Positions 29,272 through 34,311 are shown, counted from the stretch's first letter. The stretch: DNA of 64,000 nt from an uncultured Acidobacteriota bacterium (GCA_963836075.1 CAWIIB010000009.1:800001-864000); one strand, 5' to 3'. The notes: generated by a model not told the origin, from the letters alone. A program made the numbers and translations.

Positions 29272-30600
29272 ATGAAGCCCGAAGCCTTCGCCATGATCCT
29301 CGATTCCATTGCCGACGGGGTGTTCACCGTCTCGCCGGAGTGGCGGATCACCTCCTGGAACAAGGCCGCTGAGCAGATCACCGGGTTCAGCCGGGAAGAG
29401 GCGGTGGGCAACTTCTGCCACGACGTATTCCGGGCCAACGTCTGTCAGAGCGGCTGTGTGCTGCGGCAGACCATGGAATCGGGCGAGAACCTGGTCAACC
29501 GTCCGATCAACATCCTGACCCGGGATGGATACGAAAAACCGGTGAGCATCTCCACCGCCCTGCTGCGTGATGAAGAGGGAAAGGTGGTGGGCGGGGTGGA
29601 GACCTTCCGCGACCTGTCGGCTCTGGAGCGGCTGCGCAAGCGGCTGGAGAAGGAGTTCACCTTCGAGGACATCATCAGCAAGCACCACCGGATCCGGCAG
29701 CTCTTCGACATCCTGCCCCAGGTGGCCGAGTCGGGGAGCACGGTGCTGATCCAGGGGCCCAGCGGCTCGGGCAAGGAGCTCTTCGCCCGGGCGGTGCACA
29801 ACCTCAGTGGCCGCCGGGACAAGCCGTTCGTGGGGGTGAGCTGCGCCGCCCTGCCGGAGAACCTGCTGGAGTCGGAGCTTTTCGGCTACGTTGCCGGGGC
29901 CTTCACCGGCGCCGACCGCGACAAGCCCGGGCGCTTTGCCGTGGCCCGGGAGGGGACCATCTTCCTCGACGAGATCGGCGAGATCCCGCCCCCGCTGCAG
30001 GTCAAGCTGCTCCGCGTGCTGCAGGAGAAGGTCTACGAGCCGCTGGGGGCCAACGTGCCGGTGCCCGCCGAGGCTCGCATCATCGCCGCCACCAACCGCG
30101 ACCTTCGCCAGGAAGTGGAGGCGGGGCGCTTTCGCGGGGATCTGTACTACCGTCTGAACGTGGTACGGCTCGACCTGCCGCCGCTCCGTGAGCGGAAGGA
30201 GGACATCCCCCTGCTGGCCGGCCACTTCATCGCCCACTTCAACGCCGAAAAGGGCCGCGAAATCAACGGCCTGACCCCGGCAGCTTTAGCCGCCCTCACC
30301 GCCCACGACTTTCCGGGCAACGTGCGCGAGCTGGAGAACGCCATCGAGCATGCCTTTGTGATGTGCCGGGAGGCCTGGATCGATATCCAGCACTTGCCGC
30401 AGGAGCTCGTTGCCGGCGATCCCGCCGGCCCGGCCGATCTGGAGGAAACCGCGGACGGCGATGCCTTTGGCGCGGCCGAAGCCGCGGTGATCCGCGCCGC
30501 CCTGGCCCGCTTCGACGGCCACCGGGTGAAGACCGCCCGGCACCTGGGCATCCACAAGACCACACTGCTGCGCAAGATGAAGAAGCTGGGGCTCAGGTAG
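29272..30600 (+). CDS. PAS-domain sigma54-dependent transcriptional activator (OrpR-like)
   Basis: PAS ([21 protein letters not shown]), [38 protein letters not shown] and a Fis HTH. Confidence 0.93.
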
Positions 30601-30681
30601 GTCCGGCACAATCACTTGCACCCGGCAATCGAGTCTGTCACGCTTGCCGGCGAATCAGGTGTTGGACCGACTGGAAAAGGT

Positions 30682-32484
30682 GTGTATATCTTGACTGGCT
30701 CATGTCTTTTCAGATCTGTTTTTTACATTGTGCTGGTCATTGCCTCACCCGTTTCCTGCTCGACCTTCGCCCAATCCGCCACTCCATTTACCGCCAACAC
30801 ACACGATCTCTCTCAGGAATTTTCCAGCAGCATCCAGCACTGGTATTACGAAACCGGGGATGGCGCAACCCTGTCCATCGGCGATCTGGATCTGGCCCGG
30901 TGGAAACACCTCGCCGATCAGCCCGATGGCGAACATCGGCCCGGGATTCAATGGTATCGCGCGGATATTCAATTAGAGGGCACCCAAAATGAATTCGATA
31001 TCCTTGCCCTATCCGTACGGGGACTGGTATCGGCCTTTGAATTGTATTGGGATGGTGATCTGGTTGGTGCAGGCGGCGAGGTTGCCGACGCTCTGGAAGA
31101 TGAAGTTCCAGGCCCGATGAAAAAGATCGTCAGGCTGAGAAGAGATCAGACTGATCCCGGACATCACACGATTGCCATCCGGCTCTCCAATTTTCACACG
31201 GAGCGCAAAGATCCTTTGGGAAGAATCGAGATCGGGTATCACCACAACTTTCTCAATGATTCTTCCTATAAAAGCGTATCCCGTGTATTTGTCGGGGGCG
31301 CATCTCTCATAACCGGCCTCTTTTGTCTCGCCATGTTTTTTGCCGGCAGCCGCCACCGTTCGTATCTGCTCTTTGCCCTGTACTGCTTCATCACTCTGCT
31401 CTTTGATCTTATTACGATCTTCAATTTATACAATGACATCAACGTTGAATACATCCACTTGATAATCTGGCTGGTTCAATACGGCATGATCGTGTCCATG
31501 TTCTTTTTCGTCACCTTTGTCATATATACATACGAGATCCCGAAAACAGTCTTTGTCGTTCTCTTCACAACCCTGGTGTTCATGCTTGTACTCGGGCTGC
31601 AGTCAAGCGATCCGAATCGTCTTCTCTCTTATACCGAGGTATTGCCGGTCCTGGCCGGAGTGCTTCTTCTGTACAGCATATACAGGAAAACCACTGGTAG
31701 TGTTGCGGCCTTCATCGGTCTGATCATCTGGCGGGTCTGCAAGTATCCACATCTCTTTACCCAGTCGATAGAAGGCCACGTGCTCCTCTATATCGCCAGC
31801 GATATTGTCTTTCTGTTTTGCATCATCCTATCCATCAGCCGAATAATTCATGCACAAGACAGGCAGTTGCAGGAAATCAAGCTGCACTCATCCCGCCTGG
31901 AAGTTGACCTGCTGAAGAAAAATATTCAGCCCCATTTTATTCTGAATACCCTGCAGTCGATCATGAGCTGGATCAAGAAGAAGCCGGAAAATGCCTATCA
32001 GCTTATTGAAGCGCTGGCTGAAGAATTCAGAATGGTCAACCGTATTGCTGACAAGAAACTGATCCCCCTTCATCAGGAAATTGACCTGTGCAAAACACAT
32101 CTAACGCTCATGGGCCTTAGAATGGGCTCGACGTATGAGCTGGTAACCGACGGGTTGTCTGAAGAGGCACAAGTTCCCCCGATGATATTCCACACCCTCA
32201 TCGAAAATTCACTCACCCATTCCTTCAAATCGCAGGAAAGCGGTACGATCCGGCTGACCTGTGAGAGCGATGAACGGCGGACGGTCTATCACTTGTCCAA
32301 TAAGGGCTCACGGCTGGGAGAGATGTCCCGAAAGCTGGAAGAGGAGATCCATGAGGGCATGGGATTGAAATATATCAAGGCGCGGCTGAATGAGAGTTTT
32401 GCTGACAACTGGAGTCTGGACTCCACCCTGGACGGTGGGCAATGGAAGGTCACCATTGCCATCGAGCATCCTGCTTCCACTTGA
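30682..32484 (+). CDS. LytS/YehU-type membrane sensor histidine kinase
   Basis: Extracellular beta domain, multiple TMs, IQPHFILNTL, PPMIFHTLIENSLTH and GMGLKYIKARL. Start uncertain; lower GC. Confidence 0.88.
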   Translation: MYILTGSCLFRSVFYIVLVIASPVSCSTFAQSATPFTANTHDLSQEFSSSIQHWYYETGDGATLSIGDLDLARWKHLADQPDGEHRPGIQWYRADIQLEGTQNEFDILALSVRGLVSAFELYWDGDLVGAGGEVADALEDEVPGPMKKIVRLRRDQTDPGHHTIAIRLSNFHTERKDPLGRIEIGYHHNFLNDSSYKSVSRVFVGGASLITGLFCLAMFFAGSRHRSYLLFALYCFITLLFDLITIFNLYNDINVEYIHLIIWLVQYGMIVSMFFFVTFVIYTYEIPKTVFVVLFTTLVFMLVLGLQSSDPNRLLSYTEVLPVLAGVLLLYSIYRKTTGSVAAFIGLIIWRVCKYPHLFTQSIEGHVLLYIASDIVFLFCIILSISRIIHAQDRQLQEIKLHSSRLEVDLLKKNIQPHFILNTLQSIMSWIKKKPENAYQLIEALAEEFRMVNRIADKKLIPLHQEIDLCKTHLTLMGLRMGSTYELVTDGLSEEAQVPPMIFHTLIENSLTHSFKSQESGTIRLTCESDERRTVYHLSNKGSRLGEMSRKLEEEIHEGMGLKYIKARLNESFADNWSLDSTLDGGQWKVTIAIEHPAST

Positions 32485-32507
32485 ACCCTGGAAACTTGCA
32501 GATGCCA

Positions 32508-33209
32508 ATGAATATCCTGATCGTTGAAGATGAGTATCCCACCGCGGATTACACCCGGCAACTCTGCCGCGAAATTCTGGGGAACCAGCTGGGCTCCATA
32601 GCCATGGTTCACGACCTGGCCGAAGCCCTGGAGCATGTGGGCAGGCATCCCGTTGATCTGTGTTTGCTGGATCTCAACCTCCATGGCGAGAGCGGATACA
32701 AGCTGCTGCAGACGGCCGCGGCGCAGTCCTTTCATACGGTCATCATCTCAGCCTACCCCGATCAGGCCCTGGAGGCGTTTCAGTACGGTGTCCTTGATTT
32801 TATCGTAAAGCCTTTCGGGAGACAGCGATTACAGGAGGTGCTCAACGGCGTTAAGGAGCGAACAAAGAAACACGATGTAGATACCAGATACCTCAGCGTA
32901 AGAGTAAACGAGAGGTATCGGCTGGTAGAAATCGAAAACATCCAGTACATGAAATCAGACGGGCCCTACGTCGAGCTTCACTTCAAAGACGGAACAATGG
33001 AGCTGTTGACGAAAACAATGAATCGGCTCGAACAGATCCTTCCGGCCTGCTTTTTCCGCACACATCGGTCCTATTTCGTCAACCTGGATGAAATCGATTC
33101 CTTTTATCACTCCGGCGGCGGCACGTATGAGCTTACCTTGAAAGACACCACGGTGTTGCCGCTGAGCAGAACCAAATACAAGATCCTCTACGACCTGTAT
33201 AACAACTGA
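32508..33209 (+). CDS. LytTR family response regulator
   Basis: ILIVEDE, LLDLNL, DFIVKPF, FFRTHRSYFVN, LPLSR. Confidence 0.92.
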   Translation: MNILIVEDEYPTADYTRQLCREILGNQLGSIAMVHDLAEALEHVGRHPVDLCLLDLNLHGESGYKLLQTAAAQSFHTVIISAYPDQALEAFQYGVLDFIVKPFGRQRLQEVLNGVKERTKKHDVDTRYLSVRVNERYRLVEIENIQYMKSDGPYVELHFKDGTMELLTKTMNRLEQILPACFFRTHRSYFVNLDEIDSFYHSGGGTYELTLKDTTVLPLSRTKYKILYDLYNN

Positions 33210-34091: not shown

Positions 34092-34112
34092 ACCCTGAAA
34101 ATTTATGAATTT

Positions 34113-34149
34113 GAAACAGCCCTGCCGGTTTTGGCGGGGCTGTTTCTTT
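34113..34149 (+). terminator. Rho-independent terminator
   Basis: gaaacagccctgcc-ggttt-tggcggggctgtttc hairpin followed by T-rich sequence, downstream of 33390..34091. Confidence 0.75.
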
Positions 34150-34167
34150 ATAGAACATGTGTCTGAT

Positions 34168-34311
34168 GAAGCCTCAGTGATCCAGGCCACCCTGGCCCGG
34201 TTCAATGGCCACCGGGTAAAGACCGCCCAGGCCCTGGGCATCCACAAGACCACCCTGCTGCGCAAGATGAAGAAGCTGGGGGTGACGTGGTCACGCCGCC
34301 ACCAGGGATAG
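34168..34311 (+). pseudogene. Displaced 3' fragment (Fis HTH) of the sigma54 activator gene
   Basis: [38 protein letters not shown] versus [38 protein letters not shown] at 30478-30591. Confidence 0.9.

Follow-up and report, generated by a model that had tools for sequence, protein, structure and literature searches.

Prophage e14, inserted in icd of Escherichia coli, supplies that gene with a surrogate 3′ end, and the displaced original, icdC, stays as a pseudogene on the far side. Two further described systems come close to the locus treated here: insertion with long target duplication, reportedly described by Nobusato et al. (2000, Gene 259:99), and C-terminal displacement, reportedly described by Jackson et al. 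(2009). In those parts of Furuta, Abe and Kobayashi (2010; PMC2853133) that deal with the former, the known cases are restriction-modification genes between near-identical repeats. For the latter, the sections of Kirchberger et al. (2017; PMC5361080) on effector-immunity arrays of the type VI secretion system (T6SS) and on rhs propose homology-facilitated illegitimate recombination; in those systems selection favours the new end for the different toxin that it encodes. Here we analyse a locus in a 64,000-nucleotide stretch from an uncultured Acidobacteriota bacterium (CAWIIB010000009.1, positions 800001-864000, hereafter the window; G000:C9:800001-864000 in our genome set), where an islet of three genes, two of them encoding a LytS/LytTR two-component system, lies between two copies of the 3′ end of a sigma54 activator gene, act. 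The insert is flanked by direct repeats of 114-121 nt with no mobility genes in or beside it: none of the 50 open reading frames (ORFs) of the window matched an integrase, transposase or recombinase family in Pfam, a search made in the window and not for a trans-acting integrase elsewhere in the genome.

The product of act combines an AAA+ sigma54-interaction domain (Sigma54_activat, PF00158, 1.9e-65) with a C-terminal Fis-type helix-turn-helix (HTH; HTH_8, PF02954), as bacterial enhancer-binding proteins do, and also matches AAA_lid_14 (PF25601) and PAS_9. Its start matches the orthologue start MKPEAF, and the protein is 90% identical to that of the congener G002 and 87% to that of the congener G001. 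The HTH-coding end of act (H_A) recurs 3690 bp downstream, start to start, as a second copy (H_B). The two are identical at 101 of 114 positions (88.6%), the 13 base differences falling in three synonymous and six non-synonymous codons; the repeat extends to 121 nt at 87% identity, and alignment columns 66-114 form a 49-nt stretch with a single mismatch. Both copies match HTH_8 (E 4.7e-11 and 6.1e-11, respectively). Of the 12 families of direct repeats in the window, H_A and H_B form the only two-copy one of this type, and across the whole 6.2-Mb genome the 201-nt end of act matches only itself, the second copy (89%) and one paralogue (75%). A preliminary description of this DNA had reported such a repeat bracketing a lower-GC block of 3.5 kb, with genes for a sensor kinase, LytTR regulator and secreted protein and a closing terminator, and had proposed a gain that needs no integrase and leaves the target gene intact. 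Our analysis confirms the observation, and it agrees with the proposal in that act is intact and no recombinase family was found in the window.

The two copies are different alleles. H_A, which ends in KKLGLR and a stop codon, is closest to the act tail of G001 (105/114; both end GLR-stop). H_B reads KKLGVTWSRRHQG before its stop codon and is closest to the working act of G002 (105/114, 92%), which ends GITWDRRRA-stop and shares G-[VI]-T-W with it (the TW type). The same division appears at columns 22 and 33 and in the tail, which place H_A with G001 and H_B with both the G002 tail and H1, the HTH copy linked to the G002 islet. Since H_A and H_B are different alleles, in-place duplication of the target is excluded, and one copy comes from a diverged activator. 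The near-identical repeats that duplication of the recipient's own target would give are not what we found: an LR-stop end stands against a TW end, each nearer to a different congener.

We then compared orthologue tails in the 16 protein clusters fetched. The tail G-[IV]-[TV]-W occurs in three of them (P0001, P0003, P0004), which are three of the four nearest, and in four of six DNA copies; it is also present in both old scars of G002. Ten of the 16 clusters carry [ILV]-x-[YF]-P, the more distant ones G-[ILV]-x-[YF]-P, and an LR-stop tail is found in three, namely that of G001 itself together with P0029 and P0033 (66-67% identity). From this distribution we judge the TW-type tail of H_B to be an older type than the LR-stop tail of act. 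The ends of P0029 and P0033 read KRLRLR and KRLGLR, which may reflect either convergent truncation at an aromatic codon or a travelling tail. Polarising LR against TW by the tails of L007-L012 (six genomes of other families) and the paralogue L003 was also tried and rejected, these sequences being too divergent; no target operon genes lie within the 1.5-kb flanks of those loci.

H_B differs from the G002 tail at 9 of 114 sites, where a rough estimate for unconstrained sequence since the split is about 18. Relative to that tail its helix-turn-helix half carries only synonymous changes, and two N-terminal HTH_8 positions are changed in H_B alone (A to S, R to Q). Because its divergence is about half of the unconstrained expectation (four-fold identity 0.74-0.80), these small numbers suggest that H_B was a working tail until after the species split, and that the islet reached its present place later.

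Among the 41 genomes scanned, only G001 and G002, both fragmented assemblies, belong to the same genus; the 41 include the unpublished genome G025, on which none of the results presented here depends. In G001, where contigs C239 and C333 overlap at the act end, the order is W - 1.4 kb - act(LR-stop) - about 4 kb of other genes - S - D, W being the glutamate dehydrogenase block, S a gene for a secreted protein and D a MinD/ParA-ferredoxin/Nitro_FeMo-Co gene cluster, the target operon. G001 has a single HTH, its two matches being the overlapping contig ends of one locus, and its assembly holds no islet anywhere. Its homology with the window picks up again at 34312, immediately behind the H_B stop codon, and just before that point G001 carries 15-17 bases resembling the TW tail (14 of 2000 shuffles reach this score against the G002 tail). 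In G002 (contig C113) the order is act(TW) - a choloylglycine-hydrolase-family (CBAH) gene - H_C - D, where H_C is a decayed, frameshifted HTH scar of 72-74% identity with the tail IVWDKRQQRWH-stop; the hydrolase has no close homologue in the window's genome. S has an orthologue at the equivalent place in G001 (79% identity) and none at the site in G002. The site is thus empty of the islet in one congener and occupied by other genes in the other; the three genomes carry different genes between regulator and target, and the old HTH end is kept as a scar in two.

The space between the regulator and the operon that it probably drives is a hot spot of gene swapping, with several events in the genus. 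The left boundaries of the scars differ, lying at column 1 in H_B and at about column 25-40 in H_C, while G001 retains at most the 15-17-nt tail remnant, which fits random illegitimate joins. Two expectations of the preliminary description are borne out, namely that a strain without the islet would have one HTH (G001) and that the scar, rather than the current tail, would be of the older type. Its larger proposal, a recurrent route that targets the 3′ ends of genes, fared less well: swapping does recur at this site, G002 having other cargo and another scar, but boundaries that differ between events and two copies that are different alleles speak against a dedicated targeting route.

These data lead us to favour, with modest confidence, a model where act once ended in H_B, now dead and displaced, and where the 3′ part of an activator was recombined in together with the islet, by homology on the left and by an illegitimate join on the right. 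The incoming segment (H_A plus islet) would have brought the 3′ part of an activator, complete with HTH and LR-stop tail, and behind it the LytS/LytTR/secreted-protein module, and its donor may have been a related lineage or the same genome. On the left side it would have paired through homology within the activator; on the right side a non-homologous join would have formed just upstream of the resident HTH-coding region. In this way act would have been restored by the incoming end, its former end being pushed 3.7 kb downstream and staying beside its old neighbour S. Host recombination would suffice for such an event, and a dedicated recombinase would not be needed. In support of this model, H_B is contiguous with the native right flank (34312), and H_A adjoins the islet. 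The module also accompanies activator sequence in G002-like genomes, in a copy without the first ~10 codons, and displacement was repeated at one gene, as orphan ends in G002 attest (act, CBAH, H_C; and the truncated copy beside the islet).

Several points weigh against this model. No donor carrying act(LR-stop) joined to the islet was found among the sequences compared, and the only other islet-linked activator copy, H1, has a TW-type tail and a spacer of 110 bp as against 13 bp. The LR-stop tail occurs without the islet in G001, so that it could be vertical in a lineage of the window and G001, with H_B (and the islet) then the newcomer. Sliding identity along act gives a patchy mosaic and no clear crossover. 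The tail remnant of G001 is weak and matches none of the other three tails, and later deletions could have trimmed scars that once had a common boundary. Finally, the congeners are only two and both fragmented, the islet of G002 lying on contig C45 and its intact act on C113.

Table 1. Features of the act locus, with coordinates counted from the first base of the window.
Feature	Position	Strand	Remarks
Palindrome pair GGTAGC-N6-GCTACC	29189..29255 (29189-29206, 29238-29255)	+	exact pattern; just upstream of the act start
act, sigma54 activator gene	29272..30600	+	intact; PAS, AAA+, lid and HTH_8; ends KKLGLR-stop
H_A, working HTH-coding 3′ end	30478..30600	+	repeat copy 30478-30591 and short LR-stop tail
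Islet (I), lower-GC three-gene module	30609..34150	+	sharp ends; homology with the G002 copy from 30609/30614 to 34150
LytS-type sensor histidine kinase	30616..32484	+	PF06580 His_kinase, 1.2e-16; ORF opens at 30616
Response regulator, REC and LytTR	32442..33209	+	PF00072, 2.9e-17; PF04397, 4e-20; likely start 32502
233-aa protein, signal-peptide-like N-terminus	33390..34091	+	no Pfam match at E<=0.01
Intrinsic-terminator-like hairpin and T-run	34113..34150	+	right end of islet; -31.2 kcal/mol, z -7.53
H_B, second HTH copy with tail	34168..34311	+	copy 34168-34281, tail GVTWSRRHQG-stop; judged a non-functional scar
S, secreted Peptidase_S41/FG-GAP gene	34419..37029	+	Pfam; between scar and target operon
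Second pair, GGTAGC-N6-GCTACC-like	37093-37110, 37127-37144	+	ahead of operon D (ATG 37263)
Sigma54-type promoter-like TGGCAC-N5-(T)TGC	37221-37236	+	after the second site pair

The GC content of the islet is 0.50, against 0.67 for act and 0.639 for the genome, and of 6199 equally long windows taken across the genome only 0.8% are as low. Its first two genes lie side by side and encode a PF06580 sensor and a regulator with REC and LytTR domains, the composition by which we recognise a LytS/LytTR two-component system. The kinase likely starts near 30691, as relatives change frame earlier (tblastn break at residue 21; L044, L045, L049). Its N-terminal part, large, periplasmic and membrane, has no Pfam match, and no HATPase_c match was reported for the kinase at E<=0.01. 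The gene for the 233-aa protein is linked to the pair wherever the contig is long enough, with 66-82% identity in L045 and L047. At the right end, none of 200 shuffles folded as well as the terminator, whose hairpin (34113-34145) a simple terminator scan had missed, and homology of the islet with G002 and L048 ends right after it. At the left end, the region 30601-30690 folds no better than shuffles.

In G002 the islet (C45; L028 8254-11796) is 87.4% identical to that of the window and has equally sharp ends, with both flanks different. It sits there between W-X and block Y, the latter lying upstream of act in the window (19349-26014). In G002-like genomes it lies ~7 kb away, across a shared gene block, next to a 5′-truncated, internally deleted activator copy, and has no second repeat on the far side. 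Identity to G002 at four-fold sites is 0.77, 0.85 and 0.68 for the islet genes and 0.74-0.80 for act and two genes of block Y. Because the islet equals the core genes in this respect, it is about as old as the species split and not a recent import.

The activator sequence beside the G002 islet is a remnant. It begins ~30 nt downstream of the start of the coding sequence with 106 bases of the act 5′ region, and the microhomology GAGGAGGC(C/G)GTG marks their fusion to the frameshifted HTH with a TW-type tail, H1; the metagenome contigs L044 and L045 repeat this form. In L049 the deletion is a different one: 205 bases of 5′ region run at ACCGCC into the final 69 bases of the HTH. Since neither form is derivable from the other, a long, 5′-truncated activator copy was once there and is being whittled down. 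An origin of this activator and islet from an mRNA reaching from start codon to terminator was considered and rejected: homology sets in only ~30 nt after the start of the gene, and the initial bases do not match.

More distant copies of the module (L042, L046, L047; 54-72% protein identity) have no activator nearby. The GC content of the module is 0.52 against 0.64 for the host in L047 and equals that of the flanks in low-GC hosts (0.42-0.45); being GC-poor in a high-GC host and matched to its flanks in low-GC ones, the module points to an origin in a low-GC lineage. In L048 (1-2045) the end of one module (84% identity) is followed, after ~200 bp, by a second and more diverged one (76%), a tandem pair. 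Short contigs from public sequencing of salt marsh and sediment bridge the junction of act and islet (X1 record 3, X6 record 19), possibly from the source sample of the window itself and so not independent support. The first 50 letters of X1 record 7 (408 nt) do not fit the locus and the rest fits 34177-34534, which hints at a strain with something else preceding the TW-type end and S.

The best-surviving alternative, which we regard as possible though doubtful, is that the history was intragenomic. Here the activator, with or without the islet, would have been segmentally duplicated within the plasticity zone from W to D and then decayed, H_B being the remnant of a full second gene, with no horizontal transfer and no one-step insertion. 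The G002-like genomes show such decay, their long copy having been cut by two independent internal deletions; the synonymous divergence of the islet marks it as old in the genus; and the order of the blocks W, Y, act, I and D changes from genome to genome, which duplication and deletion would produce. However, only 17 bp lie between the islet terminator and H_B, and the 5′ and central parts of the activator have left no trace there; the two ends are different allele types matching different congeners. Paralogues within one genome would moreover need a duplication before the genus, yet H_B is little decayed, and we found no path of fewer than three events from the G002-like order to that of the window. 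A single excision and reintegration, or one unequal crossover, leading from W-X-truncated act-I-Y to W-Y-Z-act-I-H_B-S-D was likewise tried and rejected, needing at least three events or fragments that are absent.

A bolder form of the displacement model, which we consider improbable, would make the HTH end of act a portable homology 'handle': pieces consisting of an activator end and its cargo would circulate in the population, each arrival remaking the regulator and stacking the earlier end and cargo behind it. The short GLR-stop tail, also seen in P0029 and P0033, could be a mark of such travelling ends. If true, the stretch separating a sigma54 regulator from its target promoter would act as an integron-like cassette site that needs no recombinase.

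We give slightly less credence still to, and disfavour, the idea that a site-specific integrative element, cis-mobilisable and integrase-less, left the islet as its remnant, with H_A and H_B as attL and attR in the HTH end of act. In its topology the locus does match islands that integrases make in the 3′ ends of genes, with a surrogate end and a displaced old one; the 49-nt stretch could hold a core; and the islet ends are sharp in three contexts. Against it stand the lack of any integrase or recombinase family in the window, the different starting positions of scars of different events, with three left boundaries, and the activator attached to the islet in G002-like genomes, which runs from ~codon 11 to the end, far beyond the size of an att site, and is not repeated across the islet. 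A joint skipping from H_A to H_B was not seen among the 15 listed of 131 joints of metagenome contigs, which by itself proves nothing.

That H_B is a working stand-alone small HTH gene (ORF 34105-34311, 68 aa) under selection, for example as a competitor for the DNA sites of the activator, is hardly credible: its frame is open through the HTH to the stop codon and its helix-turn-helix half has changed only synonymously, but its single in-frame ATG lies upstream of the strong terminator hairpin, so that the coding region runs through the hairpin, a simple scan found no sigma70-type promoter consensus there, two N-terminal HTH_8 positions are changed in it alone, and such a gene is not conserved, G001 having none and the G002 counterpart being frameshifted and decayed.

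The cargo lies before a promoter that the anchor gene may itself control. The upstream region of act, with its palindrome pair, is common to G001, and the sites and promoter ahead of D are kept in G002 (L016 2780-2930), where the stop codon of H_C falls inside the first site. The promoter-like sequence ahead of D is one that we take, from the consensus, to be of the -24/-12 class. Such site pairs precede both act and D, and the activator probably drives D.

Other features of the neighbourhood are given here for completeness. The frame of S shifts between ~36450 and 36840 (overlapping ORFs 34419-36839 and 36451-37029), either a real frameshift or a sequencing error in a repeat-rich part. At the equivalent site in G001 (L029 2270-6200, G001:C333) the cargo includes opposite-strand genes for FG-GAP repeat proteins, and a couple of small ORFs next to each other within it (~5200-5800) are a candidate nucleotidyltransferase/HEPN-like pair. 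Between block Y and the act upstream region, the window holds a 3-kb block (26015-29061) that is absent from both congeners and contains a beta-lactamase-family gene (26245-27522, GC 0.54), two small ORFs and a 362-aa ORF without a family. Further away, 8967-10589 is of very low GC, with a NAD synthase-family gene at 0.39 and a 127-aa ORF at 0.42 in a neighbourhood of 0.65; near it, the compared G001 homology begins only at 10824.

The preliminary description had seen the same signature at a second, independent locus in the window. The DUF2284 gene there (55675-56214, minus strand) is single-copy, and its last 30-36 bases recur on the minus strand at 53563-53593 (27/30) and 51069-51108 (28/36). 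These scars are real; they are also short, and they lie in a paralogue array, at the ends of tandem FG-GAP/beta-helix paralogues. One of the two is explained by tandem duplication of a neighbouring gene. In G001 the 2.1-kb piece from scar to gene is missing, and the intact DUF2284 end has a paralogue-like FG-GAP gene directly beside it. The gene bracketed at this locus (53667-55637) has orthologues of 84-88% identity in both congeners, in other settings. Because it is conserved in both, the locus is not a clean second gain of a gene, and we regard it as a related scar in a paralogue array.

Side by side, the three congeners illustrate how accessory genes enter a chromosome without the machinery of mobile elements. 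A conserved gene serves as the anchor for recombination, its end is rebuilt, and the old end is left as a scar that can be dated. As the anchor here is a regulator and the cargo lies before a promoter that it probably drives, such events may rewire what lies downstream of the regulator. Annotation can misread scars of this kind as small HTH genes or as the att sites that integrative elements use. What makes the locus interesting is that three genomes can be compared and that it is placed between a regulator and the promoter belonging to it.

Set against described systems, the case is of a known scar type, real and well documented; it offers little that is new in principle and no evidence for a new mobility route. 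The cargo resembles other LytS/LytTR systems in its kinase with a LytS/YehU-type His_kinase domain and its regulator with REC and LytTR (PF06580 and PF04397), and differs from them in the N-terminal part without a Pfam match, the missing HATPase_c match and the secreted-protein gene that follows. With islands of the e14/icd type the locus shares a surrogate end and a displaced pseudogene end, whereas here the window has no integrase, the boundaries vary, and the islet of a congener is attached to nearly a whole activator copy. Like insertion with long target duplication, as the relevant parts of Furuta, Abe and Kobayashi (PMC2853133) present it, it is a block without mobility genes between direct repeats of tens to hundreds of bases, with no integrase, and both repeats align with the single copy of a relative that lacks the block, here G001. 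It departs from those cases in its two-component cargo, in the diverged alleles of its repeats (88.6%, different tails) and in having a regulator gene's functional 3′ end as the repeat. There is likeness in form also to displacement at rhs, contact-dependent inhibition (CDI) and T6SS loci, where, in the sections of Kirchberger et al. (PMC5361080) concerned, a constant 5′ part receives a new 3′ end and downstream genes, the old end is orphaned, and events are repeated. The different toxin domain and immunity gene of polymorphic toxins are not found here; both ends encode the same HTH_8, so that what is gained is the cargo, a two-component system, with the displacement as a by-product.

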